Positions 7,676 to 55,196 of a DNA stretch of 64,000 nt are shown piece by piece. Source of the DNA: Chloroflexota bacterium (GTDB lineage: Bacteria; Chloroflexota; UBA11872; VXOZ01); the NCBI GenBank assembly GCA_963662335.2, contig CAXXVD010000004.1, positions 128,001-192,000 on the forward strand, in the 5' to 3' direction. The stretch's first letter is position 1; each line of letters opens with the position of its first letter. The notes under the pieces were generated by a model. It ran no database searches. It worked only from the letters and a program-made list of their open reading frames with translations, and was not told the origin of the DNA. A program made the position numbers and the translations under genes.

Positions 7676-8747
7676 CGCGGCTGCATCCCTGGATGCGGCG
7701 CCGCTCGACGGCGCGCGGGCCGACGTCGCCCGGATTAGCGCGCCGGTGGCGGACAGGCTCGAGGAAGTGGAAGCCTTCCTCTCGGCGATGTGGGAAGAGA
7801 CGCCCAACCCCGCGCTATCGCAATTGGTGCGCCACATCATGGCCGCCGGCGGCAAGAAACTGCGGCCGCTGCTCACGCTGCTCTGCGCCTCGGCCTGCGC
7901 GCCCCCGGATGCCCGCGCCGTGAACGTGGCGGCGGCGATTGAGATTCTCCATGCTGCCACCCTGATTCACGACGACGTCATCGATCACGCGCACGTGCGG
8001 CGGGGCCTGCCGACCGCCAACGCCCGCTGGTCAAATGCCCTCGCCGTGCTCTCCGGTGACTATCTCTTTGCCAAGTGCTCCCACGTGGTAGCGCAATTGG
8101 GCGATCCGGAACTCGTGCGCATCCTGGCGCGCACCGTCATGCGCATGGTCGCCAGCGAAACAACCCAATTCTCGAGCATCGAGCACATCGACGTGGTTGA
8201 AGACGAGTACTACCGCAAGGTGCGGGGCAAGACCGCCTCTCTGCTGGAGTTGTGCTGCGAGGCGGGCGGATTGGTCGGCGGCGCTTCCGCCGCGCAGCGC
8301 GACGCCCTGCGCGCCTACGGCGAGAACGTGGGCATTGCCTTTCAAATCGTGGACGACATTCTCGACATCGCCGGCACCGAAGAGGAGTTGGGCAAGCCGG
8401 TCGGGGGCGACCTGCGGGAAGGCACCATCACGCTGCCCATCATCATCTACTTGCGCCAGCAACCGCCACATGGGGCGGCGCCTGCGACGAAATCGGCTCC
8501 GGCCCAGTCAGCCGTTGCCCGGCTGCTCACGCGGGAGTCTGATGATGAGAGCGCGCTGTGGGAAGCGGTGGCGGCCATTCGCCAGTCCGAGGCCCTCGAC
8601 GCCGCCTATGCCGAGGCCCGCAAGTATGGCGAGCGGGCGCGCGCGGCGCTGGCCGCCCTGCCAGCCGGCGACTCAAGCCCGCGCGGCGCCGATTGCCGTC
8701 GCTCCCTGGACTTGCTCGTAGACTACGTTATCGAGCGGCGGCAGTAA
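7629..8747 (+). CDS. Polyprenyl diphosphate synthase (start uncertain)
   Basis: GGKKLRP, LIHDDVID, FQIVDDILD aspartate-rich motifs; near menG. Confidence 0.93.
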   Translation: MPRRSSESPPAAEHSNAAASLDAAPLDGARADVARISAPVADRLEEVEAFLSAMWEETPNPALSQLVRHIMAAGGKKLRPLLTLLCASACAPPDARAVNVAAAIEILHAATLIHDDVIDHAHVRRGLPTANARWSNALAVLSGDYLFAKCSHVVAQLGDPELVRILARTVMRMVASETTQFSSIEHIDVVEDEYYRKVRGKTASLLELCCEAGGLVGGASAAQRDALRAYGENVGIAFQIVDDILDIAGTEEELGKPVGGDLREGTITLPIIIYLRQQPPHGAAPATKSAPAQSAVARLLTRESDDESALWEAVAAIRQSEALDAAYAEARKYGERARAALAALPAGDSSPRGADCRRSLDLLVDYVIERRQ

Positions 8748-8803
8748 CCGGAGAAGCTGACTTTCTGCGCGGAAAGCCCGCGCGAATTGCAAAGGGGGGT
8801 CCC

Positions 8804-10273
8804 ATGGCGCGCGTGCTTATCGCGGAATTGCAGCAGGAGACGGCAACGTTCAACCCGCATCTGACCCAGTACGAGGACTTTCGCGTCGTGCGCGGCGCCG
8901 CTATCGTGGAGGAACTGCGCGGCACCAATACGGAGATTGCGGGCGCGCTCGACGTCTTTGCGGAACACCCCGACGTTGCGGTCGTTCCCACCATGGCGGC
9001 CTGGGCCGTGCCCCATGGTCCCGTCGCGGACGCCGTACTCGATCGGCTAATTCAAGAGATCATCGCTGCCATGGAGGCGGAGGGCAGCGTGGACGCGGTG
9101 CTGCTCGTGCTGCACGGCGCCATGGCGAGCGAGACCGAATTCGACCCGGAAGGCAGGCTGTTGGCAGCGGTGCGGGCGCGGGTGGGCGCCATTCCCCTTG
9201 TCGCCTCGCTGGACTTCCACGCCGTCATCACCGACCGCATGTTGCAAAACGCCGACATGATGGTCGGCTACCACACGTATCCCCACACGGATTTCTACGA
9301 GACCGGCGTGCGGGCCGCGCGCAACCTGGTGCGCATGTTTAAGGAGAACGCCGCGCCGGCCACGGCCCGCGTCAAGATCCCGCTCATGGCGCGGGGCGAC
9401 GAACTGCTCACGGACACGGGACGCTTTGGCGAGGCGATTCGCATGTGCCAGGCCCTCGAAGAGTCCCCGGGCGGGCTAGCCGCCAACATCTACCTCTCCA
9501 ATCCCTTCACCGACGTGCCCGATCTCCAGTCCTACGTCATCGTAACCACGGACGGCGACCAGGAGCGGGCGAATGCGGAAGCCGAACGGATTGCGCGCTT
9601 CATGTGGGAGAATCGCGACCTGTGGATGGCCGAGTTGACGCCGCTCCCCGAAGCGGTTGCCCTGGCGCGGGCCACGCCCGGCCTGACCGTCTTTTCCGAT
9701 GCCGCCGACGCCACCTCTTCCGGCGCGCCGGGCGACAGCAACGCCGTGTTGAAAGAGTTGCTGGCGCAGGACTATGACGGCAAGGCCCTCATCCCGCTCA
9801 TCGACGCGCCCGCCGTGGCGGCCGCGTTCGCGGCCGGCGTCGGCGAGACCGTTACCCTGCCATTGGGCGGCACCATGGATCCCGGCCGCAACGCGCCATT
9901 TACGGCAACTGTTTATGTAAAGAGCCTGCACGACGGCGAATTCGCCTATGAAAACAGCGTCATCGAACAGGCCGGCCGCACGGCGGTGCTCACGATTGGC
10001 AACGTCTCCGTGCTGACCACCGAACGCCTCATTCTGTTCGTCGGCCGCCGGGTGTTCCAGGCGTTCGGCCTGGAGCCGCAGGACTTCTCCTTAGTGGTCG
10101 CGAAATCCCCTAACGGCTTTCGCACCTGGTACGAGGAGATCGCAGCCCGCATCGTGCATCTGGACACGCCCGGCTCCGCCAGCCTCAATCTCGAGTCGCT
10201 GCCCTACGAACACTGTGTGCGCCCGATCTATCCGCTGGATGACGACGTTACCGCTGACTTGCGCGCCGGGTAA
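8804..10273 (+). CDS. M81 family metallopeptidase (MlrC-like)
   Basis: QETATFNP, LHGAM, DFHA, YPHTD motifs. Confidence 0.9.
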   Translation: MARVLIAELQQETATFNPHLTQYEDFRVVRGAAIVEELRGTNTEIAGALDVFAEHPDVAVVPTMAAWAVPHGPVADAVLDRLIQEIIAAMEAEGSVDAVLLVLHGAMASETEFDPEGRLLAAVRARVGAIPLVASLDFHAVITDRMLQNADMMVGYHTYPHTDFYETGVRAARNLVRMFKENAAPATARVKIPLMARGDELLTDTGRFGEAIRMCQALEESPGGLAANIYLSNPFTDVPDLQSYVIVTTDGDQERANAEAERIARFMWENRDLWMAELTPLPEAVALARATPGLTVFSDAADATSSGAPGDSNAVLKELLAQDYDGKALIPLIDAPAVAAAFAAGVGETVTLPLGGTMDPGRNAPFTATVYVKSLHDGEFAYENSVIEQAGRTAVLTIGNVSVLTTERLILFVGRRVFQAFGLEPQDFSLVVAKSPNGFRTWYEEIAARIVHLDTPGSASLNLESLPYEHCVRPIYPLDDDVTADLRAG

Positions 10274-12269: not shown

Positions 12270-13322
12270 GTGCGGAAGGGAGTAGCCGCCGCCGGTTGCA
12301 CGGCGGCGGGACTCACCTTCGACTCCGCTCCCTCCCGCCAAGCCTGGGACGAATTCGTCAGCGCCGGGGGCGGTCAACTGCTCCAAAGCTGGGCGTGGGG
12401 CGAATTCAAGGCCCGCACCGGATGGCAAACGGCGCGCATGGTGTGCCTGCGCGACGGGCGGCCCGTCGCGGCCGCCCAGTGGCTGCGGCGGCGCGTGCCG
12501 TTGCTGGGCGCGCTGGCGTACGTGCCCCGGGGGCCGGTGGTGGCGCGGGACGAATTCGCGCTGGTTGCGCCGTTGCTGCGGCAAGTCGCGCTGGCTGCGC
12601 GGCGCGCGGGCGCGTTCGGCCTGTGGCTCGAACCACCGTGGGAGAAAGAGAGCGGCCCGGCGCTACCGCCCGGGTATGCCGCCACTGCCCAGTACATACA
12701 GCCCCAGGCCACCGGCCTCGTCGATCTCCGTCCGCCGTGCGACGCCGTGCTCAGCGGATTCCACGGCAGTATGCGCCGCAATATCCGCTTGGCCGTGCGG
12801 CGCGGCCTGGAAGTGCGTGAAGGAAGCGGCGAGAGCGACTGGCGCGAGTTCTACGCGCTCTTGACGGAGACGGCCGCGCGCGACGAATTCGGCATTCATA
12901 CGTGGCCCTACTTCGCGGCGATGCGCGAGACCCTGGAGGAGCCGGGGATTGCCACGCTATTTTTGGCCGAGCACGGCGGCAAACCCGTAGGCGGCTTGCT
13001 GCTGACCGTGTACGGCGGTGTTGCCGCCTACCTCTTTGGCGCCAGCGCCACGCAGGCGAGAGACCTGCGGGTGGGCCACGGCTTGCAGTGGCGCGCCATG
13101 TGTTGGGCTAAGGAACGCGGCTGCCACACCTACGATCTCTGGGGTATGCCGGCCGCAGCCGGCGCGGACGCTCCTCTCGCCGGGGTCTACCGTTTCAAGC
13201 AAGGGTTCTCGCCCCAGGTTGTCAGCTACGCCCCCACGGCGGTTGCCGCGCTCGATGCGCGCCGCTTCTGGCTTTGGCAGCGGCTCGCGCCGCTGGCGCG
13301 CAAAATCCTGCCCGGGCTCTAG
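12270..13322 (+). CDS. FemAB/FemX family peptidyltransferase
   Basis: LLQSWAWGEFK, YVPRGP, YDLWG, GVYRFKQGF. Confidence 0.9.
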   Translation: MRKGVAAAGCTAAGLTFDSAPSRQAWDEFVSAGGGQLLQSWAWGEFKARTGWQTARMVCLRDGRPVAAAQWLRRRVPLLGALAYVPRGPVVARDEFALVAPLLRQVALAARRAGAFGLWLEPPWEKESGPALPPGYAATAQYIQPQATGLVDLRPPCDAVLSGFHGSMRRNIRLAVRRGLEVREGSGESDWREFYALLTETAARDEFGIHTWPYFAAMRETLEEPGIATLFLAEHGGKPVGGLLLTVYGGVAAYLFGASATQARDLRVGHGLQWRAMCWAKERGCHTYDLWGMPAAAGADAPLAGVYRFKQGFSPQVVSYAPTAVAALDARRFWLWQRLAPLARKILPGL

Positions 13323-13362: not shown

Positions 13363-14403
13363 TTGAAGTCTTCCTCTCTCAACGTCATCACAAACGTCGC
13401 CCAAGTTGCGTGGACGGAGGCCTTGTCGACTCTGCCGCCCCCGCATTTCCTCCAAACCTGGGAGTGGGGCGCGCTCAAGGCGCGCTACGGCTGGCGCGTC
13501 CAGCGCTTCCTCTATGAGCGAGACGGCCAGGTCGTTGCCGCCTGCACAGTGCTCACCCGCCGTCTCGCTCCGCTGCCGTGGACCATTGCCTACGTCCCCA
13601 AAGGCCCCCTGCTAGACTACGCCGGCACGGCCCTGTTCGAGGCGGTGCTCGAGCACGTTGCCGCCGTCGCCGGGGCGGCGCGGGCCGCGTACGTAAAAGT
13701 CGATCCCGATTTCTCCGCCAAAAACCGGCAGGCGCAGCGCATCTACCGGCGGCGCGGCTGGCGGGCGAGTGAGGAGCAGATTCAGTTTCCCCACACCGCC
13801 GTGCTCGACCTCAGTCCCGGGCCGGAGGCGCTGCTGGCCACCATGAAACCGAAGACGCGCTACAATATCCGCTTGGCGGGCCGCCGGGGCGTGGAAATCG
13901 AGCCAACGACCGACTGGCAGACGCTCTTCACGCTCTACGCGGAGACCGCGCGGCGCGACGGCTTTGCCATCCGCGAAGAGGGCTACTACCACGCGCTGTG
14001 GTCTGCCTTCCAGCAATCCGGCCAGGGGGAAGCCTTCGTGGCGCGCGTTGAAGGCGAGGCCGTGGCCGGACTCTTCCTCATGCATACCGGCGACACCGGC
14101 TGGTTCTTCACCGGCGCTTCCTCACAGCGACAGCGGGAGAAAATGCCCAACTACCTGCTCCAGTGGCACGCCATCCAATGGCTCAGCGCGCGCGGCTACC
14201 GCCGGTATGACTTGTGGGGCGCGCCCGACGTGTCGGATGACGACGATCCACTGTGGGGCGTCTACCGCTTCAAACAAGGCTTTGGCGCGCGCTACGCGCC
14301 GGGTCTCGGCGCGTACGACCGTGTGTTGAACCGCCCGCTCTACTACGCCTTAACACAGGTCATGCCTCGGTATTGGCGGCTGCGCCGCCGCCTTCTCCGC
14401 TAG
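13363..14403 (+). CDS. FemAB/FemX family peptidyltransferase, second paralog (start approximate)
   Basis: HFLQTWEWG, YVPKGP, KTRYNIR, YDLWG, GVYRFKQGF. Confidence 0.9.
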   Translation: MKSSSLNVITNVAQVAWTEALSTLPPPHFLQTWEWGALKARYGWRVQRFLYERDGQVVAACTVLTRRLAPLPWTIAYVPKGPLLDYAGTALFEAVLEHVAAVAGAARAAYVKVDPDFSAKNRQAQRIYRRRGWRASEEQIQFPHTAVLDLSPGPEALLATMKPKTRYNIRLAGRRGVEIEPTTDWQTLFTLYAETARRDGFAIREEGYYHALWSAFQQSGQGEAFVARVEGEAVAGLFLMHTGDTGWFFTGASSQRQREKMPNYLLQWHAIQWLSARGYRRYDLWGAPDVSDDDDPLWGVYRFKQGFGARYAPGLGAYDRVLNRPLYYALTQVMPRYWRLRRRLLR

Positions 14404-22511: not shown

Positions 22512-22585
22512 GGGCCACTAGCTCAGTTGGTTAGAGCGCGCCCCTGATAAGGGCGAGGTCTGTGGTTCAAATCCACAGTGGCCCA
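22512..22585 (+). tRNA. tRNA-Ile(GAT); CCA not fully encoded
   Basis: GGGCCAC/GTGGCCC acceptor, loop CTGATAA, T-loop TTCAAAT; upstream TGGTACAAT extended -10. Confidence 0.97.
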
Positions 22586-22677
22586 CCTTCGTTACACGGT
22601 CCGCCAGCGTCCATACGTTAGACTTCCGTTGCCAACACACCTGGCGGCGGTGTCTGGCTGCCCGGTCAGCCGCCCCT

Positions 22678-22753
22678 GGGGATGTAGCTCAGTTGGGAGA
22701 GCACCTCCTTTGCAAGGAGGGGGTCAGGAGTTCGAGTCTCCTCATCTCCACCA
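22678..22753 (+). tRNA. tRNA-Ala(TGC)
   Basis: GGGGATG/CATCTCC acceptor with G3:U70, loop TTTGCAA, encoded CCA. Confidence 0.98.
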
Positions 22754-23343: not shown

Positions 23344-25113
23344 ATGCGAACCGAGCAAGAACTGTATCCAAAGACCAGCCGTATGGGACTGATTGCCAGT
23401 CAAGTACGCAAAGGCCTCGGCGTTTCGTTCTTGCTCCTGGCCTTGGCATCCCTCGTCACACTTGCCGGCGCCTGCGGCTACTACCCTACCGCGATCTCCA
23501 TGCCCACGGCGACTCCGGCTCCCGAACCTGCGGCAGTTCCCGATCCCCAGGATGAAGCCGACGCCCTCACCCGCGCCTACGTGGAGAAGGCGATTGAACG
23601 CTATGTGCGCGAGGGGCTTGAGGCGACGGTCGCATTCTACAACAGCGAAGAGAGCGTAGAGGGCGAGCGGTACTTGACGTTGCTCCGCCAGGAAGACGGC
23701 ACTTCCCTGGCCATGCCATACTTCCAATACGCATTGGGAACCAGGCTCAAAGCCTTTGACATATACCTGGAGGCGGCTACGGCTGAGGGAATCTGGCTTG
23801 ATCACCGGGGAATGCTCTCGTCCCGATCCGCCGCTGGCGAGAACATCCTCAGGGTAGAGCCGCTGAGGAGTTTCGTCATTCTGCGCGACGGCCTGGTTTT
23901 CGTATCCAGACACTCCGTATTGCACGAGAACGTGGCGGAAGCCACCCAGGACTACGTGAGCCGCGCGATCGCTCTCTACCAGAGCGACGGGCTTGACGCG
24001 ACGGTTGCCTTCTACAACAGCCAGCAGAGCCTGGAGGGGCACTTCTACCTGTTCCTCATCGGCGCGGACGACAACTATCTGGCGCATCCGATATTCCCGC
24101 ACCTGATTGGCACTGACGTAAAGGACGTTGTGGGTTCGGACGGCCAGGAATTGGGGAAGGAGATAGCGCAAGCGACGGAGGACGGGATTTGGGTTGAATA
24201 CCTGTGGCCCAATCCGGTGACCCGGGTAGAGGAGCCGAAGACCACCTGGGCGGTCCGGCACGATGGGCTGATATTCGCTTCGGGCTACTACACATCCGTC
24301 GAGGAGGCGGTTTCGCCAGCCTGGGAGGGCGCGGACCCGCGCGAATACACGGTGGATTACGTGAACCGCGCGATAGAGCGGTACGAGCGCGACGGCCTTG
24401 AGGCGATGAAGACGTACTACAACAGCGTGGCGAGTTTCGAGGGCGAGTGGTATCTGTTCGCGGTGGACGAAAATGACCTGTACATCGTTCATTCACTCCT
24501 TCCCCGCCTGCTAGGGACGGACATCAAGGACTTGGTTGGATCGGACGGATTCGAACTGGGCAAGGAGTTGGCCAAGGCGACGGAGGAAGGGATCTGGGTG
24601 GAATACCTGTGGCCGCATCCGATTACGCTGCAGGAAGTGCCCAAGGTCGGGTACGCGGTCAGGCGAGACGGGATGATCTTCGCATCGGGCTACTACCCGG
24701 CGCCGGAAGACCCCGCCGCCGACGTGAAAGCCTTTGCGCGGCAGGCAATGGACTACTATGACTCAAATGGGCTGGAGGCGACGGTCGACCACTTCAACAG
24801 CGAGGCGAGCGAAGAGAGTTCCTACAATCTGCTCTTGGTCAGCGGCGAAGGCGAAGTCCTGGCGTTCAAGTTAAGACCGGCGTTGATTGGTCTGAATGTC
24901 GCGTTTCTGCGGGGACCCTTGAAGGGCGAGCCCGTTGGCGAATTGATCATGGAGGCGACGGCGGAAGGCCATTGGATTAGCTTCTTGTGGCAAAGCACAA
25001 TGGCGTCTGACGGTGTGCCCGCCCACGTATGGTCGGTCCGCCACGACGGTCTCGTCTTCTCGGTGTTCTACTTCGGCAATCTGGCAGCGGCGGAGGTAGA
25101 CGACGACGCCTGA
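23344..25113 (+). CDS. Lipoprotein with four tandem Cache-like domains
   Basis: Lipobox LAGAC; four repeats of 'YV.RAI..Y..DGL.AT..FYN...G.W..Y.W.....K....VR.DG.IF.SGY'. Confidence 0.8.
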   Translation: MRTEQELYPKTSRMGLIASQVRKGLGVSFLLLALASLVTLAGACGYYPTAISMPTATPAPEPAAVPDPQDEADALTRAYVEKAIERYVREGLEATVAFYNSEESVEGERYLTLLRQEDGTSLAMPYFQYALGTRLKAFDIYLEAATAEGIWLDHRGMLSSRSAAGENILRVEPLRSFVILRDGLVFVSRHSVLHENVAEATQDYVSRAIALYQSDGLDATVAFYNSQQSLEGHFYLFLIGADDNYLAHPIFPHLIGTDVKDVVGSDGQELGKEIAQATEDGIWVEYLWPNPVTRVEEPKTTWAVRHDGLIFASGYYTSVEEAVSPAWEGADPREYTVDYVNRAIERYERDGLEAMKTYYNSVASFEGEWYLFAVDENDLYIVHSLLPRLLGTDIKDLVGSDGFELGKELAKATEEGIWVEYLWPHPITLQEVPKVGYAVRRDGMIFASGYYPAPEDPAADVKAFARQAMDYYDSNGLEATVDHFNSEASEESSYNLLLVSGEGEVLAFKLRPALIGLNVAFLRGPLKGEPVGELIMEATAEGHWISFLWQSTMASDGVPAHVWSVRHDGLVFSVFYFGNLAAAEVDDDA

Positions 25114-25451
25114 CCTCCGCCTCCCGGGTCGTTATCCCATCACAAAATGAGGTGGGCGCCAGCGATTGCCGGCCGTTCTCCGCGGTGGACTTGCGTTCTC
25201 CGCATCCCGCTCTATCCTGAGGTAAGAACTGAAGAGTCCCACTCGGGCATGTGTGGAATATTCCCCATATGCCCGACCTTGGGCCTCAGCGGTTATGCGC
25301 CAGGCCCATCGCATTGGCCTCCTTACCGTTGGGCTTGCCACCGAAGAGTTGGCAATCGAGTCGCCGCCGTCCAGGTCTTCTTGAGAATCCACCGGCCCGA
25401 TGGGCCTGGCTGGCCTGTCTATGGCCACCAAGATGCGCGGGTCTATACGCC

Positions 25452-26564
25452 ATGCTGAATCTGCCTCATGCCGATGTCGTTGGGAGCCTCATTAGACCAC
25501 CGGAACTCCTCGCCGCGCGCGCGGAATTCGCGGGCGGGCGCATCTCGCCCGCGGCATTCAAGCGCGCCGAGGATGCCGCCGTCGATGGCGCCATTGCCGC
25601 CCAGGAGGAGGCCGGCCTTGAGATCCTCACCGACGGCGAAATACGCCGGCTCTCATTTCAGAGCCAGCTGCCCGAGGCTGTCGCGGGCTTTGGCGAGTTC
25701 GATCTCGACGCGTTTCTCTGGGGCGATTGGCGGGGGGACGAGCGGGTAGGCGACTCGCGCACGGATCGTCCCGCGACCCTAGGTGTCGTCGGTCGCCTCC
25801 AGCGGAAGCGCCACCTGTCGGCGGAGGAGTTCACCTACCTGCGCGGCCGCACCACGCGCCTAGCAAAGGTGACGTTGCCGAGCCCCAGCTTGTTCGCCAA
25901 CTTCTGGTCGCCGGTGAAGTCCGCCGCGGCCTACCCCACACTGGATGCGTTCCTGGCCGACGTCGCGCGGATACTCCGCGAGGAGATCGAAGAGCTGATC
26001 AGGCTGGGGGCGACCTACATCCAACTCGACGCGCCGCACTACCCGCTCGTGCTGGATCCGCAGTGGGCGGCGTTCTACGAGGCGCAGGGGTGGTCCGCGG
26101 CGGACTGGATCGCCCAGGGCGTCGAACTGGACAACGCCGTGATGGACGGTTTCTCGGATGTGGTGTTCGCGTTCCACCTCTGACGCGGCAACCAGGGCGG
26201 CCGGTGGCTGGTCGAAGGCGGTTACGACCGGCTTGTTGAGCCGGTGCTCCGGCGCATACACGCGCAGCGGCTGATGCTGGAATACGACGACCCGCGCTCA
26301 GGCTCGTTCGCGCCGCTGCGCGGCGTGCCCGACGACAAGCTCGTGGCGCTGGGACTGGTCACGACCAAGTCGCCGCGCGCGGAGACCCCAGCCGAACTTG
26401 CGTCTCGCATCGCCGAGGCCGCCCGCCACTTCCCGCTCGAGCAACTCGCCATCAGTCCGCAGTGCGGGTTCGGCTCATCCATCGTCGGCAATCCTCTCTC
26501 GATCGAGCAGCAGAACGCAAAACTGCGCCTCGTCGCCGAGACCGCCCGCAACGTTTGGGGGTAA
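25452..26564 (+). CDS. Cobalamin-independent methionine synthase II (MetE C-terminal-like) family protein, probable selenoprotein (in-frame TGA at 26181-26183)
   Basis: ADVVGSLIRP, TDGEIRR, YIQLDAP, FHL-[TGA]-RGN at the H-x-C-RGN Zn site, then in frame LEYDDPRSG and SPQCGF. Confidence 0.85.
26184..26212 (+). promoter_or_regulatory. Candidate bacterial SECIS element
   Basis: CGGCC-GGT-GGCTG hairpin (alternative ACCAG/CTGGT pairing), G-starting loop 19 nt after the UGA. Confidence 0.55.
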
Positions 26565-26841
26565 ACGTCCTCGCCATGTTTGCCAGCGACCCCCAGGGGT
26601 CCCTTCCTCGGTCCGTATAGCGGCCTTGCTAACGACCGTCCACACCCGTGACCCATAGTTTCTTGAACTGCCAACCAGAGCGGAGCAATGAAATACACTC
26701 GTACGGTATACCCCGCCTTCTATTCTCCCTTTTCTGGTATTGCATTGTTTCATGCATCGCCGGTCCAATTTCCCAGTGGCCCTCCACCAAGAGCAGCGCC
26801 GGCACTTAGTAGCCAGCGCCCTGTTATACTAGCCGTCGCAC

Positions 26842-26917
26842 TGGGATGTAGCTCAGTTGGGAGAGCACCTCTTTGTAGAAGAGGGGATCAGGAGTTCGAG
26901 TCTCCTCGTCTCCACCA
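26842..26917 (+). tRNA. tRNA-Ala-derived 76-nt tRNA with GTA anticodon (G3:U70 kept, U1.C72 mismatch); functional status unknown
   Basis: Near copy of 22678-22753; stem CCTCT/AGAGG around TT-GTA-GA; encoded CCA; TGTTATACT extended -10 at 26822-26830. Confidence 0.75.
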
Positions 26918-27069
26918 ATTTGCATCTGAGACTTGAGGGGGGACTCGGACTCCTGACCTGCGGGTCGCCGTGTGCGGGCAAGCAGGTTAGTTTTGCCGGA
27001 TCAGTCGGTGAGGCTGATGACGTGGAGCAGGACCGTATGTCCACTTCCATTCAATCAACGGCTGCTTTG

Positions 27070-28035
27070 TCAATCTACCACCTGGTACTTGGCAGGCAAG
27101 TTACTGGGACTGTAGGGGTTGCCGGAATTCTCCATGCGTCTGGGCACGCTCGAATGAATCTTCGCCGATTCGGGAATGCGCCGCTGTACCGGACGCCAGA
27201 CGCGCCACATGCCTCGTCGGGACTCCTGGATTGCGCCTAGTGGATCCGGATTAAGGCTGTCCTCCCAACCATTTCTCAAGCGCAGCCCTTTGTCCCGCGC
27301 GTTCTCCAACATCCACTTTAGTGAAATGTCCGATATTCTAGGATCAGGATGCGACCCGCCCACGTCGGAATGGAAGCCCGGGAACCAGACTTGCTCTATG
27401 ATCTGGCGCTCACTCCTGCGACTCTCGTTCCAAAGGCTCACAGGGAAGTGTCTGCGTCGTTCGTCGATTGAGACCGCTTGGTAGCCATAGGTCACGTCCT
27501 CGTTCAGGACGGTATCGAAGAACTTCCTCCCCCAAAACCAGCCCATAGAACCGACGGTGTCCCATACACCAATGAAGTAAGGCTTGCATTCGTGGCAGTA
27601 CGTTTCCTTGAACCCGGCGGCAATATCGTGATTGTCACGTCTGTTGTAAATCTTCGTAGCGTATGGAATGAGATTGTTGCTGCCCTTTTGCAGCAGGCCG
27701 CACTTGTGCAACATGCCCGCGAGCGCGCGAACCGTAAAGGCTCCTCTACTGAATCCGAAGAGGAACACCCTATCCCCCGCTTCATACCGGTCCATTAGGT
27801 ATCTGTAGGCATCCTCCACGTTCTGCTGCAGACCCGCGCCAAAGGCTTTGCCCAACAGGATACCCACTCGGCGGCCGGCTTCCCGCCCCAAGAAACTGAA
27901 GGTTCCGACACCAGGGTCGTAGAAGGCGATCTGATCCGAATCGCGTACGACGCGCTGGTACAGCTTGACCACGTTGGTACTGTTGCGACTATGTTCAGCC
28001 CCGGTCCCGTCACAGCAGATGACGATGTTCTTCAT
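27070..28035 (-). CDS. DUF2235 (Tle1-like) alpha/beta hydrolase
   Basis: CCDGT, YDPGVGT, FGFSRGA, GVWDTV, VWFPGFHSDVGG. Confidence 0.92.
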   Translation of the reverse strand: MKNIVICCDGTGAEHSRNSTNVVKLYQRVVRDSDQIAFYDPGVGTFSFLGREAGRRVGILLGKAFGAGLQQNVEDAYRYLMDRYEAGDRVFLFGFSRGAFTVRALAGMLHKCGLLQKGSNNLIPYATKIYNRRDNHDIAAGFKETYCHECKPYFIGVWDTVGSMGWFWGRKFFDTVLNEDVTYGYQAVSIDERRRHFPVSLWNESRRSERQIIEQVWFPGFHSDVGGSHPDPRISDISLKWMLENARDKGLRLRNGWEDSLNPDPLGAIQESRRGMWRVWRPVQRRIPESAKIHSSVPRRMENSGNPYSPSNLPAKYQVVD

Positions 28036-28110
28036 GCGGCTCTTCCAACGCGGGGGACCGATATGTCGTGTCTCGCGATCATAGAGCGGGTGCTTCTACT
28101 TGTCCCCAGG

Positions 28111-30459
28111 CTACCTGTAGGCATCGCCCAGCCACGGATCCGACCTGAGGTCCCTGTCGAACTCGCGAAGTGGGTGGCGGTCGGGGTCGAGTTTCTCTCC
28201 GGTATCCCATGGCTCGAAGGCGTTCTTGATGTTCCCCAGTCCCGTTCGGCCAAGCTCCGGGAAGTGACGGAGTATAACGGTCTTCAGGTCGGCGGCATCG
28301 ATCCAGGCAAGCCCCTCCTTCGTGTAGGTCTGTTCATTGTAGTCGTCGGTGTAGAAACGGTCCGCCTGGAGTCTGCGAGTCGCGTTCAGGATGAATATCT
28401 GGAACAGCGTTTCGCCGAACCCGAATCCGGTGGGGCGATGCCCCTCAGCGAGTGTACCAATCAGCAAGTCCAGCTTCTCCACGTCACTCGGCTGGTCCCC
28501 ATACACGTCCTTGAGCTTCCGTACCTGTTCGACGTCGTCGGTAAGGTCGTCGAACGTGCGAATTGGGTTGAGGCCCAATTGACGCCTGAACTCGTTGTAC
28601 CGTGGCACGCCCCTTTCGCGCGCCCTGAGGATGTCTACCGCACCCATATCGAAGAGCGGGTTGCCCGGTACACTAAGTTCTCGCATGAAGCTGGGGTAGT
28701 TGTTCAACACCAGTTGGCCCGGGTGCTGGACGCCAAATGAGAAGAACAGATCGGCCATTGACGTTCTGGCGGTCAGCCTGCCGGATCCCGCCTGGCGAGT
28801 CTGACCGAACGGCACGTCCTCGACCGCATTGTCGTTGCCGAGGCTTCTGATTCGGATTGCCTCGGGCAGAAGCGAGTGCAGGCGATAGACTTCGGCAAAC
28901 TCCTCGGTGAGGCCGTAGGGCTGCCCGTGCTTGTTGATCGGATTGCCTACAACACCGCCCATCTCCGGGTTCCGCACGTTGATGTCCGCAACCGTCTTCC
29001 TGTTCTCAGCGGCCCTGTAGGTGGTGAACAACCCATACCAGTTGGCATTCAGTCCTGAGTCGAGTCCGCGATTCGGGAGAATTGCCGGCGTCCATTCCAC
29101 GGTGTGTATCTTCGCCATCACGGCCGCGTTTATAAGGCGCGCCACGCTGAACAGGCGTGCGTCATCCCAATCATGATGGGCGCTCTTCAATCTGTCGCAG
29201 ATGGCATTATGCTCTCGCGTGAAGAGGGTGTGCAGCATGGTCAGGCCTATCCACCAGTTCCGGGTGAAGCCAGTCTGCTCGATACCCTTATCGTCGAGAG
29301 GTAGATTGCCCGCATCGTTGAGCCGAAGCTTGCCGTCGACCTTGGTACGGAGCTTTTCCAGAGTCTCCTGATTGCTGCCGTATATCTGAGAACCGTCCCA
29401 CCAGTGGGTGACTTCGTTGATGAACGTTATCGGGGTCCGTTCTCCATCGGGCATTCGGGTGGGATCGGATTGTGTCTTACCGATGAACATACTGGTCTGC
29501 CAGTGCTTCTTCCGAGCCGGGTCGTCTTCGGCCAGCGGAATCTCGTGCACCTCGTTGATGAGAGGCTCCCCATGGTGAACCCAATCATGGTTTTGGAAGT
29601 TGATCCATGACGCAGCCAGCAGATTGAGGAAAGGCACCTCCTTCATTTGCTCGCCCCTGGCCAGGAAGATGCGGCTTAACTCTCTCGGGTTCGGCGTCAT
29701 CAGGCTTTCACCCGTCTCTGGATGAATTACGTCGTTGTTCACATTGCGGGGGAAGCGAGTGCCTGCGGCGCCTTCTTTGGGATCGGCCAGGTTGTTCCAA
29801 CTTCCATCGGCCGTGCGAAAGTGTCTGACGCCCGGAGGTGGAGACTGTCCCTCCGGCTGAAAGCCTATCAAGGCTCCGGGTGGATAGGTGCTCTTGAGGT
29901 TGTTCTTGTTGAGTTGGTCGCGCATGTAGGCCAGGGTGAGAATCCCGATGAAGTACGGCCGGCGGTACCAGTTTGTCCACACCTCGTCGCGGTAGCCGGT
30001 CAGACCTCCTAGAACACTGGTCAATACGCTCATGACCAGCGACACAAACGCCCCTCCCGCGTTCCCCACCGCTAGCAGAACCCACTGGAAGAAGTTCCGC
30101 CTCGGCGCCGCCATCGGAGTAGAGGGTATAGAGCCATCCTCTACGACCGGCCTGGCGAGCAACGCGTCGCGGTCGAAGTAGGATATGTCCGGTACGTGCA
30201 CGTTCACTTCAGCCGCCGCATTCACGCGGGCCTGCGTCAACATGTCCTGCCACGTGCGCCTGTTGGGATCGAGCTTCAACGCTTGCCGGTAACTGTCGGC
30301 AGCCTCGTCATACTGCTGCAGACCGTAGTGCGCGGCCCCGGCGAGGGCGTGAGTTTCACCATCGGCGTCCGCGTCAATCTGCGCGCTCAGCAGTTCGAGA
30401 GCGTCCCGGAACCTGCGTTTCTCGATCAGCCGCGCCGCATCTTCGTTCGAGTTGCTCAT
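28111..30459 (-). CDS. Peroxidase-cyclooxygenase family heme protein (fatty-acid alpha-dioxygenase-like) with N-terminal TPR
   Basis: RTADGSWN, SWINFQNHDW, THWWDGSQIYG, AKIHTVEWTP, EEFAEVYRLHSLLP, RERGVPRYN, RRLQADRF. Confidence 0.9.
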   Translation of the reverse strand: MSNSNEDAARLIEKRRFRDALELLSAQIDADADGETHALAGAAHYGLQQYDEAADSYRQALKLDPNRRTWQDMLTQARVNAAAEVNVHVPDISYFDRDALLARPVVEDGSIPSTPMAAPRRNFFQWVLLAVGNAGGAFVSLVMSVLTSVLGGLTGYRDEVWTNWYRRPYFIGILTLAYMRDQLNKNNLKSTYPPGALIGFQPEGQSPPPGVRHFRTADGSWNNLADPKEGAAGTRFPRNVNNDVIHPETGESLMTPNPRELSRIFLARGEQMKEVPFLNLLAASWINFQNHDWVHHGEPLINEVHEIPLAEDDPARKKHWQTSMFIGKTQSDPTRMPDGERTPITFINEVTHWWDGSQIYGSNQETLEKLRTKVDGKLRLNDAGNLPLDDKGIEQTGFTRNWWIGLTMLHTLFTREHNAICDRLKSAHHDWDDARLFSVARLINAAVMAKIHTVEWTPAILPNRGLDSGLNANWYGLFTTYRAAENRKTVADINVRNPEMGGVVGNPINKHGQPYGLTEEFAEVYRLHSLLPEAIRIRSLGNDNAVEDVPFGQTRQAGSGRLTARTSMADLFFSFGVQHPGQLVLNNYPSFMRELSVPGNPLFDMGAVDILRARERGVPRYNEFRRQLGLNPIRTFDDLTDDVEQVRKLKDVYGDQPSDVEKLDLLIGTLAEGHRPTGFGFGETLFQIFILNATRRLQADRFYTDDYNEQTYTKEGLAWIDAADLKTVILRHFPELGRTGLGNIKNAFEPWDTGEKLDPDRHPLREFDRDLRSDPWLGDAYR

Positions 30460-31240
30460 TTTCTCCCTCCAATGCGGTGAACGTTTGCGCACATGCATAC
30501 AGATTCAGCTGCTCAGTCGGGTCTTACGTGATACCTGAGGCCACCCTCTGGATACGAGTGTGGCAGCGGGTCTTGCGATAAGACTGGACTTTGCGGGCGT
30601 ATTCGACCGTACTGAATCAGCTTTAGGATAGCCACCTTGCAGACGAGGAGAATGAGTCCCTTGCCGAGGCAGTCCTCGCGCCGCCGAGAAAGAGGCTGGG
30701 ATACATGGCCTCTGCATCGCTTCCAGGTTCCACAGAAGGCCCACCGCTACGGCGATACGGAACCCATTGAGCGAAACGTTCATAAAGCCAGACCTTCGTA
30801 CTTTCTTTACCGTTGTACCATACTGTAATTCGTGTGAGGCTGCAAGTAGCCGATGCAGCGCCATCAGCCCGACGGGTCCGCTAACGTGCGCTCACTTGAT
30901 GTCCACCGCCGGGGCGCTGGGACCGGCCTCCACGGAGAGCCGAGTGATAGAGGGTGCTATGAACGCCGCCCATGAGCGGTGGTAACCCTTGCCGTACAAA
31001 GTCCATCGGGACAGATAAGTGTATCGCGGCCGTGGTAGACACTGGCTTCACCGGGTCCCCGACCGTGACTCCGGCGCTGGTCATAGAGTTGGAATAGCCC
31101 CTCGCTGGCAATAGCCGTGTGACGTCGAATCTCCCACCGAAGAGTTCGCAATTCGGTACGCCTTGGCCCGCCAATTCAACCGCTCTCAGCTACAATACTA
31201 TCTGGGCCAGCCGCGCAGACGCGCATTTGGAGTGCACACT

Positions 31241-31735
31241 ATGGCCGGCAAGACGTCCAAGTCGGTAAAGCGGGAGCGAGAGAAGGCCGCCGCGCAGAAG
31301 GATGACGCGAAGCCGGTTCTTCTCTCCGGCGGCAACCCGCAGATCGCCAAGGCCGACGGCGACGCGCCCGTGCGGGCCTACATCGCGGCCATGCCTGAGT
31401 GGAAGAGCGACCTCGGCCGCAGGCTCGACGCGCTCATCGTGCGCGAGGTTCCGGAGGTACGCAAGGCGGTGCGCTGGAACTCGCCCTGGTACGGCATCGT
31501 GGGCCGGGGCTGGTTCCTCAGCTACCACGTCTTCACACGCTACGTCAAAGTGACCTTCCTGAACGGCGCGTTACTGCATCCCGCGCCACCCGGCTCCGGC
31601 AAGGACCCGGACGCCCGCTGGATTGACATCTACGAGGGCGAATTCAACGAGGAAGAGTTGGCGGCGTGGGTGCGGCAAGCCGCCGTCCTGCCCGGTTGGG
31701 ATGGCTTCCAGCACGTTGCGGACCCCAATTCGTAA
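31241..31735 (+). CDS. DUF1801 domain protein
   Basis: LLSGGNPQIAKADGDAPV, KAVRWNSPWYG, VKVTF. Confidence 0.85.
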   Translation: MAGKTSKSVKREREKAAAQKDDAKPVLLSGGNPQIAKADGDAPVRAYIAAMPEWKSDLGRRLDALIVREVPEVRKAVRWNSPWYGIVGRGWFLSYHVFTRYVKVTFLNGALLHPAPPGSGKDPDARWIDIYEGEFNEEELAAWVRQAAVLPGWDGFQHVADPNS

Positions 31736-32215
31736 CCTGAGAGACCCGCCAGGCGAAGTTGGGCGTGCGCGCAGAGCCCCTGCTGTGCACGATAGAGGAT
31801 GAAGAGTTCGATCGGCCCATTCGCCCCTCGCCGGAGAACCGCCCGCGCCGCGCCGCATTCCCACGCACACACCTCGACTACCACATCTCATGGGCTTCCT
31901 TCCTAAGCTGCAAAGCTCGCCCCGTGCAGCGCGTTGCATTTGACACGATGGTTTGCATCGCCATACGATAGTAACCCACCGCTTCCGACCGCCGCATTCC
32001 AGGGCCAGTGCTGGCGCGTCCCTGACGTGGACGGTAAACAATCCAGCCCCGGAACTCTGGGACACGGCGACCGGTCGGTCCCGTCTGCCCGCTGGTGCGA
32101 ATTCGCCGAGGAATACGCCTTCATCCTGGCGAGCCTGGGCATGGCGGAATGAGCGCGCCACTGCGGTGATGGCTTTGCGGCCGGGCTGCGAGGCCCGGTC
32201 TGGCCGGAGGGCAAC

Positions 32216-51191: not shown

Positions 51192-51485
51192 GATTTGACT
51201 CAGGTATGAAGTGCTGCCGCGTTGGTGTTGACCGCAGCCCGCAAGCGGGCCCGGCAAACCGCACGGCGCACATTGTGAACGTGCACCGGTGAACAATGCG
51301 CAAGTCGTGGAAATGCAGAACTCCAATTTTGCCGATTCGACGCGCGGCTAAGTCCTCGACCATTAGTACCGCTCGGCTGAACGCGTTACCGCGCTTACAC
51401 CTGCGGCCTATCAACCAGATCATCTCTCTGGGGTCTTACCTCTCGCCGCAAAGCGGTCGAGAGTGGGGAACCTAATCTTGAGGCT

Positions 51486-51518
<33 letters not shown>

Positions 51519-51576
51519 ATTCCGCACGTAGCTACCCAGCTATGCCTCTGGCGAGACAACTGGTACACCAGCGGTG

Positions 51577-51608
<32 letters not shown>

Positions 51609-51636
51609 CTCCTCGCAAGTTCCCTGCGCCTGCGGA

Positions 51637-51683
<47 letters not shown>

Positions 51684-51686
51684 GCG

Positions 51687-51721
<35 letters not shown>

Positions 51722-51797
51722 GCTCCAGCCCCAGGATGCGCTGAGCCGACATCGAGGTGCCAAGCCTCCCCGTCGCTATGAACGCTTGGGGGAGATA

Positions 51798-51828
<31 letters not shown>

Positions 51829-51990
51829 ATAATCCACGGCCCTTCCACTCGGAACCGTAGGGTCACTAAGCCCGACTTTCGTCCCTGCTCGACGTGTATG
51901 TCTCGCAGTCAAGCTCCCTTGTGCCTTTACACGCTAAGGCTGATTTCCATCCAGCCTGAGGGAACCTTTGGGCGCCTCCGTTATCTTTTG

Positions 51991-52026
<36 letters not shown>

Positions 52027-52284
52027 CTGTCCCCCTCCCGGATCACGGCAAGGGGTTAGAATAAGGATCGTAGAAGGGTGGTATTTCACCATTGCCTCCC
52101 CAATCCCCAAGAGGAAAGGTTCACAGGCTCCCACCTATCCTACGCATCGACGGCCCCGATCCAATGCCAAGGTGCAGTAAAGCTCCACGGGGTCTTTTTG
52201 TCCTTCCGCAGGTAACCAGCATCTTCACTGGTACTTCAATTTCGCCGGGTCCCCTGCTGAGACAGTGCCCAACTCGTTACGCCA

Positions 52285-52323
<39 letters not shown>

Positions 52324-52999
52324 CGGTACATCGCGGCGTCTCCGCCGCAACTTATCCCACTCTGTTTCCAGAGGGGCCGGACTTTCTCTTCACTCGTCCT
52401 CTGTTCATCTGGCCGGCGATCGCGCGGATCTCGGCTATGCCTTCGGTCGTCACGTGCGTCCCACGCTCCATGAGCAGCAGGATGCGCCGGAATTTGATGA
52501 AGTCCACACGCTTCTTGGAGCGCAGTTCGTGCTTCTCAAAGAACGGAATAATCCGTTCCCGGAGGTGTTGCACGCTGCGCACCCGATAGCACATGCGGTC
52601 ACCGTGGTTTCTACGCACTACTCCACACCCAAAGAAAGCCTTGAGTTGGTAGAGCAGTTGCGCGTCGCGTTCATGCTGCACCACGGTAAATTCAGGCAGC
52701 ACCTGAAAACCGGAGGTCATTTCGTCGTGGCGATTGATGCCCACAAAGAAGCACCCTTCTCCATCGACGAAACCGCAGATCCATTGCGCCGTCAACCGTG
52801 AAGACGAGGCCGGACGTAAAGTCTCTGAGGGTTCTCTCGTTTCGGTCATGCGAGAGCCTTCCCTGCGGATTGTCCCCATGTCCGCCAGGCTTCTTACTGC
52901 TTGCGCGCCGCGCGGAAGCGCGGCCTGCAAACGAGTACCTGATGGCTGTGCGAGGAGTTTCCCGCATATGGTCCGGTTTTACTAAGGCTCGCGAAGTGA
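52324..52999 (-). mobile_element. Group I intron in 23S rRNA at the site equivalent to E. coli U1931
   Basis: 676-nt insert in CCUAAGGU^AGCGAAAU; P1 with U-G at 5' splice site; UCAGAGACU and AAGAGAAAGUCC core motifs; terminal G. Confidence 0.95.
52352..52849 (-). CDS. Single-motif LAGLIDADG homing endonuclease
   Basis: WICGFVDGEGCF, F.V.QH, FFGCG.V, IIPFFEK..L...K..DF..F. Confidence 0.95.
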   Translation of the reverse strand: MTETREPSETLRPASSSRLTAQWICGFVDGEGCFFVGINRHDEMTSGFQVLPEFTVVQHERDAQLLYQLKAFFGCGVVRRNHGDRMCYRVRSVQHLRERIIPFFEKHELRSKKRVDFIKFRRILLLMERGTHVTTEGIAEIRAIAGQMNRGRVKRKSGPSGNRVG

Positions 53000-53216
53000 A
53001 CCTTAGGACGGTTATAGTTACCGCCGCCGTTCACCGGGGCTTCCCGTCAGGGCGTGAACCCCTCTAGTTAACCTTCCGGCACCGGGCAGGCGTCAGCCCC
53101 CATACATCAGCTTTCGCTTTCGCGGAGACCTGTGTTTTTGTTAAACAGTCGGTTGGGCCTCTTCAGTGCCACCGCGGCTCGCTAGCCGGCGCAAGGCCGG
53201 AGCACGCGCCGCGGTA

Positions 53217-53249
<33 letters not shown>

Positions 53250-54546
53250 GAGTTCCTTAGCAGAGGGTCTCCCGCTCACCTTGGGACATTTACCCCCGCC
53301 CACCAGTGTCGGTTTGCGGTACGGGCGCCCATATTCTGGCTAGAGGCTTTTCTTGCAGGCTGGGCTCAAAGGAATCGCCCTTGACGATTGTCGCGGACTC
53401 TCCATCGCTTCTCGGCGTTTGGGGTAGAGCGGCGGATTTACCTGCCGCTCCCGCCTACCAGCTTGGACGTGTATAGCCAAGAACACGCTCCTCCTACCCT
53501 GCCCGGTCCCCCCTTCGCTCATAACGAACACGGGCGGTTCCGGAATATCAACCGGATGTCCATCGCCTACGCCATATTGGCCTCGGCTTAGGCCCGACTA
53601 ACCCTCAGTGGACGAACCTTCCTGAGGAAACCTTGGGCTTACGGTGAGCCGGATTCTCACCGGCTAACGCTACTCATGCCGACATTCGCACTTCCCTGCG
53701 CTCCACCCGTCCTTTCGGTCGGGCTTCGCCGCCCAGGGAACGCTCCCCTACCCGGCGGCTGCTCCCGTAGGATTGCCGCCGCCCTAGCTTCGGTACCAGA
53801 CTTAAGCCCCGTTGAATTTTCGGCGCCAGACGGCTTGACCAGTGAGCTGTTACGCACTCTTTAAAGGATGGCTGCTTCCAAGCCAACCTCCTGGCTGTCC
53901 GGGCTATCCGACATCCTTTCCCACTTAGTCCGGATTTAGGGACCTTAGCTGAGGGTCTGGGTTGTTTCCCTTTTGACGATGAAGATTATCCCCCACCGTC
54001 CCACTCCCAGGCAACGTGTACACGGCATTCGGAGTTTGGTTGGGTTTGGTAACCGTTTTGGCCCCTAGCCCATCCAGTGCTCTACCTCCGCGACACTTAA
54101 ACCTGAGGCTGCACCGCAATGCATTTCGGGGAGAACCAGCTATATCTGAGTTCGATTGGCATTTCACCTCTAGCCACAGCTCATCCCCCAGTTTTGTAAC
54201 ACTGGTGGGTGCGGGCTTCCACGAGATATTACTCTCTCTTCACCCTGGCCATGGCTAGCTCACTCAGTTTCGGGTCTACTCCACGCGACTGGATCGCCCT
54301 GTTCGGACTCGCTTTCGCTACGGCTCCGGCCCTCCGACCTTAGCCTTGCCACGCATAGTAACTCGTCGGCTCATTCTCCAAAAGGCACGCCATCAGGCAT
54401 TCCGCCTCATAATGCGGGCTCAACGCCCCCGCGCGCCGCGCCTCCCGAAAGAAGCGCAGTTTGCGGGCACGCCGTCCCAGCAAGGCGGCATAGCCCTCTG
54501 ACTGCTTGTAGGCGTACGATTTCAGGTTCTGTTTCACTCCCCTCCC

Positions 54547-54577
<31 letters not shown>

Positions 54578-55196
54578 CGTTCGCTATCGGTCGCCAAAGG
54601 TGTTTAGCCTTGGGAAGTGGGCTCCCCAGCTTCCCACAGGGTTACACGTGTCCCGTGGTACTCAGGCACAGCAACGAGAGAGCCGTGGCTTTCGTGTACG
54701 GGGCTCTCACCCTCTCTGGCGGGCCGTTCCAGGCCCTTCTACTAACCACAGCTTTTCTCCAACTCTCCGGGCCCCTTGCAGAGGGCCCTGTTGCGGCCTC
54801 CAACCCTCACGCTGCAACGGCTGCAACCTATCGCACAGCGTGAGTTTAGGCTCATCCCCTTTCGCTCGCCACTACTCAGGGAATACTCTCTCTTCCTCGC
54901 CCTACTAAGATGATTCAGTTCGGGCGGTTCCCCCCGCAGGTCTATTAATTCAACCTGCGGTGACGAGGCATCACCCTCGCCGGGTTTCCCCATTCGGGCA
55001 CCTGCGGATCAAAATCTGCTGACGACTCCCCGCAGCTTTTCGCAGTCAACCGCGCCCTTCATCGGCCTTTGGCGCCAAGGCATCCGTCGCACGCCCTTAG
55101 TAACTTAGCCTGCTTCGAACCGGCAAAATTGAAGTTCTGCTTGCGCATATTCACCTGTTAACGTGCCGCCCCCACTCGCGCAAGGGCGCATCCCCT

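Follow-up and report, generated by a model that had tools for sequence, protein, structure and literature searches.

The stretch of DNA analysed here (the window, 64,000 nucleotides) comes from a Chloroflexota bacterium whose genome assembly, referred to as G000, consists of 5 contigs and 3.23 Mb at 64.5% G+C. Three tRNAs are found in the window by ARAGORN: a tRNA-Ile(GAU), a tRNA-Ala(UGC), referred to below as Ala1, and a 76-nt gene on the plus strand, referred to as copy2, whose anticodon GTA leads the program to call it tRNA-Tyr(GTA). The Rfam tRNA model gives 69.5 bits to the tRNA-Ile, 69.4 to Ala1 and 56.1 to copy2. The locus contains the following features:

22512 to 22587, plus strand: tRNA-Ile(GAU), the partner of Ala1, whose 3' end gave rise to the remnant upstream of copy2.
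22678 to 22753, plus strand: Ala1, the functional parent tRNA-Ala(UGC) (ARAGORN), identical over positions 1-75 in all 12 genomes read; one of them, G006, encodes T for the last A of CCA.
25449 to 26564, plus strand: MetE-like (Meth_synt_2) gene with an in-frame TGA at 26184-26186, the anchor upstream of copy2 in all five copy2-bearing genomes.
26764 to 26841, plus strand: remnant of the last ~22 nt of a tRNA-Ile (about 26764-26785) followed by the ancestral Ile-Ala spacer, including the -10-like TGTTATACT, identified by aligning the stretch with the primary Ile-Ala units in related genomes.
26842 to 26917, plus strand: copy2, a second copy derived from tRNA-Ala(UGC) and most likely a pseudogene, with GUA, G37, U1.C72 and an encoded CCA (ARAGORN, Rfam).
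26918 to 32203: variable segment, starting right after the CCA of copy2; conserved synteny is back at ~32204.
27070 to 28035, minus strand: Tle1-like hydrolase, in the variable segment.
28111 to 30498, minus strand: haem peroxidase, in the variable segment.
31163 to 31735, plus strand: DUF1801 protein, in the variable segment.

Base by base, copy2 is identical to Ala1 at 67 of 76 positions. Two of the nine differences lie in the acceptor stem (G1>U, which produces a U1.C72 mismatch, and A67>G, which produces a U6.G67 wobble), two compensate each other in the 31-39 pair (C31>U and G39>A), four fall in the anticodon loop (U34>G, G35>U, C36>A and A37>G, turning UUUGCAA into UUGUAGA), and one, G46>A, is found in the variable loop. 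The original prediction had described a 76-nt copy of a tRNA-Ala with encoded CCA, GUA, G3:U70, A73 and a short variable loop, a description that both ARAGORN and the base-by-base comparison confirm; the changes that it listed are correct, and only G46>A was missing from them. U1.C72 is the sole broken pair in the cloverleaf. The cloverleaf energy is weaker than that of the parent by 6.6 kcal/mol (-21.3 for copy2 vs -27.9 for Ala1), and the minimum-energy fold of copy2 (-24.1) differs from the cloverleaf.

Copy2 retains both the G3:U70 and the A73 of an AlaRS substrate, together with the supporting G2:C71, G4:C69 and G20 and the encoded CCA, and in its T-arm and at G18G19 it does not differ from the elongator parent. 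An alanine anticodon (NGC) and an intact G1:C72, as expected of a tRNA-Ala, are missing. GUA and A73 are Tyr identity elements in bacteria, and copy2 has both, but it lacks the class-II long variable arm of a bacterial tRNA-Tyr (its variable loop is 5 nt) as well as the A37 of a CUGUAAA-type loop, having G37 in UUGUAGA instead. A modified A37 is needed in tRNA-Tyr. Elsewhere in G000 (C3:355300-355385) lies a canonical 86-nt tRNA-Tyr(GUA) of class II, which has the long arm and a CUGUAAA loop with A37. The isotype of copy2 was judged by its 88% identity to Ala1 and its missing long arm. In one study, three runs, which may be of the source samples, yield contigs that match the region with 0 differences over 26534-27231 (26534-27187 in the third run), so the copy2 sequence is real DNA and no assembly slip. 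A relative in run X5 (~90% identity) gives an alignment that ends at 26871, short of the anticodon.

The MetE-like gene upstream of copy2 is unusual in its own right. Its in-frame TGA lies in the motif FAFHL-TGA-RGN, at what we take to be the position of the family's zinc-binding Cys, and the printed frame also ends ...HL in four relatives (G007, G005, G015, G001). Reading through the TGA gives a protein that the Pfam domain matches end to end (residues 10-341 of 371), and a tRNA-Sec is encoded in G000 at C2:661756-661853. On the basis of the read-through match and this tRNA-Sec, the product is probably a selenoprotein.

The DNA immediately before copy2 reveals what was duplicated. Its ~80 nt align with the tRNA-Ile 3' end and the Ile-Ala spacer of the primary units in G001, G006 and G016, which indicates that the duplicated unit comprised the tRNA-Ile 3' end, the spacer and the tRNA-Ala. 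The primary Ile-Ala pair sits behind the 16S rRNA gene in G003, G004, G005 and G007; in G000 a different contig carries the 16S gene (C5:433293-434826), and the tRNA-Ile is preceded by hisS. The 23S-5S pair of G000 is linked neither to the 16S gene nor to the Ile-Ala tRNA pair, and its 23S rRNA gene, which lies in the window (51344-55110, minus strand), carries a group I intron at 52358-53014. The extended -10 reported by the original prediction is present as TGTTATACT at 26822-26830, 11 nt upstream of copy2, and the motif TGNTATAMT is found twice in the window vs 0.44 times expected. Promoter and terminator scans of 26500-27150 found no two-hexamer sigma-70 site and no terminator. The -10-like motif is identical in G004, the genome with the most damaged tRNA copy, and degraded in G003, G005 and G007, so whether it is present is no guide to tRNA integrity. 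The motif is ancestral to the duplicated unit. Two sources for the copy2 anticodon arm by gene conversion were rejected. The first, the real tRNA-Tyr, was set aside because its canonical anticodon arm is unlike that of copy2. The second was a pair of sites where the 13-mer of the copy2 arm occurs again in G000; both lie inside mutually alike GC-rich sequences (250 nt compared) that have no tRNA fold and, judged by eye, look like paralogous genes.

Comparison with related genomes can show whether such a copy has been maintained. A search of 41 related genomes with the 76-nt copy2 sequence gave matches in 37, in most cases at the ordinary tRNA-Ala, and in four of the 16 other same-genus genomes (G003, G004, G005 and G007) a second, weaker match lies 1.8-9.5 kb from the first. 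The region was compared in 11 of these 16 congeners, five fragmented assemblies being left out. According to ARAGORN, the four second copies all read TGC and the other seven of the 11 loci contain the Ile and Ala1 genes only. Window positions 25357-26918, spanning the MetE-like gene, the intergenic region and copy2, form one continuous alignment of ~88% identity to each of the four genomes, and in each the alignment stops at the 3' end of the second tRNA-Ala copy. This continuous alignment establishes the second copies of the five genomes as orthologous.

The orthologues are damaged, each in its own way. The second copies of the four relatives carry 3-5 changes each, breaking pairs and invariant positions. 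In the case of G007, G4>A creates A4.C69 adjoining G3:U70, and A14>G, C31>G (G31.G39) and C62>U are also present. The G003 copy has two acceptor-stem mismatches (U6>C, giving C6.A67, and G7>A, giving A7.C66), a variable-loop change and CCA>CCC, while that of G005 has A14>G, G22>U and C25>G, with two D-stem pairs broken, and two variable-loop changes. The G004 copy has a 7-nt insertion and T-arm changes. Rfam scores of these four copies are 57.3, 49.8, 47.7 and 44.4 bits (56.1 for copy2 of G000 and 69.4 for Ala1), and cloverleaf energies are -24.1 (G003), -19.5 (G005) and -17.9 kcal/mol (G007). Random divergence among relatives had been put forward in the original prediction as an observation that would tell against a working tRNA of odd identity, and it is what is seen: different damaging changes in each genome, at a neutral rate.

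This rate can be gauged from the neighbouring DNA. The second copies of the four close relatives differ pairwise by 9-13%, and each differs from copy2 of G000 by 16-18%. The corresponding values are 2-5.6% and 10-13% for the 197-nt upstream intergenic region, and the pS of the MetE-like gene is 0.04-0.07 and 0.24-0.25. Set against the pS of this neighbouring gene, the rate of change of copy2 is no lower than that of silent sites. The nine copy2 changes on the G000 branch correspond to 0.118 per site, about half of 0.25, which matches the prediction of neutral drift. One further congener, G015, is without copy2, and its alignment stops at 26702. A maximum-likelihood tree of one neighbouring gene from 10 genomes places G015 as sister to the clade of four, with G000 outside (supports 0.98 and 0.95). 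Because G015 falls inside the copy2-bearing clade, copy2 has been lost at least once. The body of Ala1 is the same in 12 of 12 genomes, whereas copy2, which diverges at or above the synonymous rate and is lost in G015, is not kept by purifying selection in the way of functional tRNA genes.

Homology ends where copy2 ends. Past its CCA nothing is common to the five genomes: the segments that follow the second copy encode IS-type transposases in G003 and G004, the latter also with a C-5 DNA methylase and a HATPase_c_3 protein, and a methyltransferase in G007. In these respects copy2 resembles the tRNA pseudogenes and remnants found at the borders of variable DNA, being a paralogue of a functional tRNA gene that evolves at a neutral rate, with damaged orthologues, a loss in one lineage and a synteny break at its end beyond which relatives have transposases, a DNA methylase and other cargo. 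Unlike the 3' att-core remnants of such borders, the repeated unit is a whole tRNA with its spacer and a piece of tRNA-Ile. Unlike the borders of integrated elements, there is no integrase beside it, neither among the five ORFs scanned at 23344-31735 in G000 nor among the 10 ORFs scanned in the four relatives; the adjacent integrase and short att-type repeat of an island border were thus not found. And unlike damaged border remnants, copy2 of G000 still folds as a nearly perfect cloverleaf. The haem-peroxidase gene, which follows copy2 in G000 (28111-30498, minus strand), lies directly after Ala1 in G003 (L032 11021-13636), and this position suggests that recombination between the two tRNA-Ala copies moved cassettes. 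A classic case of the more usual kind is also found in G000, where a partial tRNA-Val(GAC) duplicate lies 13.7 kb from the intact gene (C5:555746-555820 and 569447-569523, minus strand). By eye, most of the 3' part of this pair agrees and the 5' part of the copy is unrelated, a pattern typical of elements that have integrated at a tRNA.

Taken as a whole, copy2 is likely to be a non-essential, neutral relic of an old duplication, with no role in translation, whose DNA marks the edge of a variable segment. The original prediction had offered, as the last of three readings, a decaying integration-site duplicate. The decaying duplicate is supported by the different disruptive mutations of the orthologues, the one loss, the neutral rate and the border with variable DNA; its attribution to an integration site is only partly shown, since no integrase occurs in the scanned ORFs and the unit is larger than the usual att repeat. 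In the history that we propose, duplication of the tRNA-Ile 3' end, the Ile-Ala spacer and tRNA-Ala(UGC) would predate the split of G000 from a clade of at least four congeners. Copy2 would have drifted at an approximately neutral rate since that split, its loop changing by chance from UUUGCAA to UUGUAGA in the G000 lineage. It would not be maintained as a tRNA, and its 3' end would form the edge of a variable, cargo-carrying segment. Any transcript would start at the -10-like motif inherited with the unit or reach copy2 by read-through of the MetE-like gene, and with U1.C72, G37 next to A36 and a weakened cloverleaf it would probably be a poor substrate for processing and decoding. The U1.C72 mismatch would be expected to impair processing and EF-Tu binding, and G37 beside A36 to impair codon pairing. 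We infer that copy2 is neither expressed nor charged and has no function.

The GUA form of the copy was found in this one genome only. Looking for the variant in related genomes, as the original prediction had suggested, gave no GUA copy in any of the 16 other same-genus genomes, and an Ala-type pattern (G2-G4, Ala D-arm, U33-GUA) occurred in one of 401 sampled genomes of the phylum, namely G000 itself. The exact copy2 anticodon arm had 0 matches in the metagenome collection. The Ala-type GUA pattern was found there at six loci, none of them from a relative: four consist of 140-nt units in tandem that carry truncated 5' parts of tRNA-Ala; a fifth is an Ile-Ala pair whose copy has a 6-nt loop; and at the sixth (L162:7279-7351, plus strand) an Ala-like GUA tRNA precedes a phage-type integrase (7888-8898, plus strand) by 537 nt. 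The L162 tRNA, on an AT-rich contig, is class-I with G3:U70, A73, a G2.A71 mismatch, no CCA and a CUGUAAA loop; it is another GUA-bearing Ala-like copy at an element border. The tandem repeats of ~140 nt, in up to 5 copies (L164:2157-2750, L165:87-260, L161:1708-1883, L166:1525-1559), each include a tRNA-Ala truncated to its 5' two-thirds, which has an altered anticodon arm and lacks the 3' acceptor strand, and an intact tRNA-Ala(GGC) follows just downstream of them. A looser pattern applied to species-representative genomes matched at least 119 stretches, of which 82 matches in 80 loci were listed. Those listed include intron-containing tRNA-Tyr genes of archaeal and eukaryote type, bacterial tRNAs with an interruption behind the anticodon, and a small number of remnants; none of the 82 has an Ala acceptor stem with a full cloverleaf. 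A wider family of Ala-type GUA tRNAs was therefore not found in the phylum, the metagenomes or, among the matches listed, the species-representative genomes.

The alternative that survives best is that copy2 is a functional, alanine-accepting tRNA that reads Tyr codons (UAC/UAU) and inserts alanine at a low level, which we consider unlikely. By this account, which corresponds to the first reading of the original prediction, transcription of copy2 would still start at the -10-like motif or come from read-through, and AlaRS would recognise the processed RNA via G3:U70 and A73 and charge it, a route to which we give only a slim chance. It would act as a low-dose Tyr-to-Ala mistranslator or as a dual Ala/Tyr acceptor, its substitutions being the trace of selection, and the odds are well against this too; U1.C72 and G37 would then serve to keep activity tolerably low, a role that is equally doubtful. 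Every sequence-readable AlaRS determinant is intact in copy2, and G3:U70, A73, CCA and the -10-like motif have all been kept. The pattern of changes is also suggestive. Copy2 has one broken pair (1-72), a compensated 31-39 pair and a 6-67 wobble, and 0 of 12 positions taken as invariant in tRNAs are changed. When nine independent substitutions were placed on Ala1 in 200,000 simulated runs, the probability of at most one broken pair with no invariant change was 0.008, that of a run of at least four adjacent changes 0.007, and that of at least six changes in the anticodon arm 0.003, values that assume independence and were computed after copy2 had been picked out by eye. A doubly changed pair that still pairs appeared in 11% of runs. 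However, the read aligner renders the arm differences as 2 indels (one deletion and one insertion) and 2 substitutions, that is, as four events and not six, and the clustering then becomes borderline (P ~0.05, a hand estimate). The easiest way to the compensated 31-39 pair is C31>U and then G39>A, via a U.G intermediate, and it could have been taken at a time when the copy still worked as a second tRNA-Ala. It is because the changes preserve structure and cluster in the anticodon arm that we leave a small share of probability to a low-level Ala-charged tRNA(GUA).

The comparative evidence weighs against it. GUA is unique to one genome, and a mismatched anticodon conserved across related genomes, as would be expected of deliberate mistranslation, was not found. 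The orthologues decay and one has been lost, the number of changes fits neutral drift, the cloverleaf is weakened and not the minimum-energy fold, and the 26500-27150 scans detected no sigma-70-type promoter. In addition, tRNAs that decode codons beginning with U do not typically have G37 after A36. The proposal of a Tyr-to-Ala mistranslator thus gains nothing from the comparisons.

Anticodon-shifted tRNA-Ala genes are reportedly found in the yeast CUG-Ala clade and among human tRNA-Ala variants. Like them, copy2 combines a G3:U70 tRNA-Ala body with a non-alanine anticodon after duplication (available text of PMC11415595 and PMC10543346). According to the same texts, both yeast and humans provide cases in which tRNA-Ala anticodon variants mistranslate, and the review PMC11415595, in the text available, describes natural mistranslating tRNAs in Streptomyces, CUG-clade yeasts and humans. 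For instance, 52 of 57 engineered yeast tRNA-Ala anticodon variants mistranslate (PMC10543346), and no statement specific to GUA was found in the main text of that study. Those cases, however, are conserved across species or have been shown to be expressed and to mistranslate, whereas copy2 occurs in one genome only; it also needs four loop changes, vs one in the known tRNA-Ala variants, and has G37, the 1-72 mismatch and decaying orthologues. A second parallel is tRNA-ProX of Streptomyces and Kitasatospora, which like copy2 is a bacterial tRNA whose body and anticodon disagree (available text of PMC11415595). In contrast to copy2, around which there is no family, tRNA-ProX forms a conserved family with a co-encoded dedicated synthetase, ProRSx, and has A33 and A34. 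The available text of this 2024 review and a limited literature search describe no natural bacterial tRNA-Ala with a non-alanine anticodon.

A further reading from the original prediction, to which we attach very little probability, is that copy2 donates alanine outside the ribosome to two FemAB-family transferases for cell-wall cross-bridges, the 1-72 mismatch allowing it to avoid EF-Tu and leaving the anticodon free to drift. The two Fem-type genes reported in the window are real and adjacent (12339-13229 and 13441-14355, plus strand), and the acceptor end, G3:U70 and CCA of copy2 are intact while its anticodon is altered. In the staphylococcal case, the cell-wall tRNA-Gly species differ from elongators in the T-stem or G18G19; such T-stem or D-loop changes weaken EF-Tu binding, and linkage or co-conservation with the Fem genes is a further mark of donor tRNAs. 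Copy2 has the T-stem and G18G19 of its elongator parent, it lies ~12.5 kb from the FemAB genes and is unlinked to them, and the comparisons lend the idea no support: the relatives do not conserve the acceptor end (two acceptor-stem mismatches and CCC in G003, A4.C69 in G007), their copies decay, and G015 has lost the copy. Among 14 control genomes, only Thermus and Deinococcus have the FemAB family. Least probable of all is that copy2 has a dual or Tyr identity and is charged mainly by TyrRS via GUA and A73 as a harmless extra tRNA-Tyr, given the missing long variable arm, U1.C72 in place of G1:C72, G37, a G3:U70 that would still attract AlaRS, and the same damaged orthologues, neutral rate and G015 loss. 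That a canonical class-II tRNA-Tyr is already present in the genome supports the reading of copy2 as a relic.

Other tRNAs of G000 deserve mention. A well-formed 76-nt class-I tRNA with anticodon GCU (Ser AGY), A73 and a short variable loop is encoded at C3:472588-472663 (minus strand), adjoining coaBC, even though the genome also has a normal tRNA-Ser(GCU) with a long arm (C3:167554-167647). No close paralogue of the class-I gene exists in G000, and none of the 16 same-genus genomes has it. As a tRNA of odd identity it is a better candidate than copy2. ARAGORN lists 51 tRNAs in G000 with no tRNA-His and one unassignable 87-nt call at C2:501869-501955; the absent tRNA-His may be an assembly gap (the assembly is 96% complete) or a detection miss.

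As the pseudogene that we take it to be, copy2 matters mainly for annotation, where the tRNA-Tyr call of tRNA finders would lead to a false second tRNA-Tyr gene in G000. It also records a duplication of the genus' 16S-Ile-Ala unit and marks a hotspot for variable cargo. If the mistranslating reading were nevertheless true, copy2 would be a case of natural bacterial mis-insertion of alanine at tyrosine codons and the first natural bacterial tRNA-Ala to read them, and it would show how the indifference of AlaRS to the anticodon lets new decoders arise.
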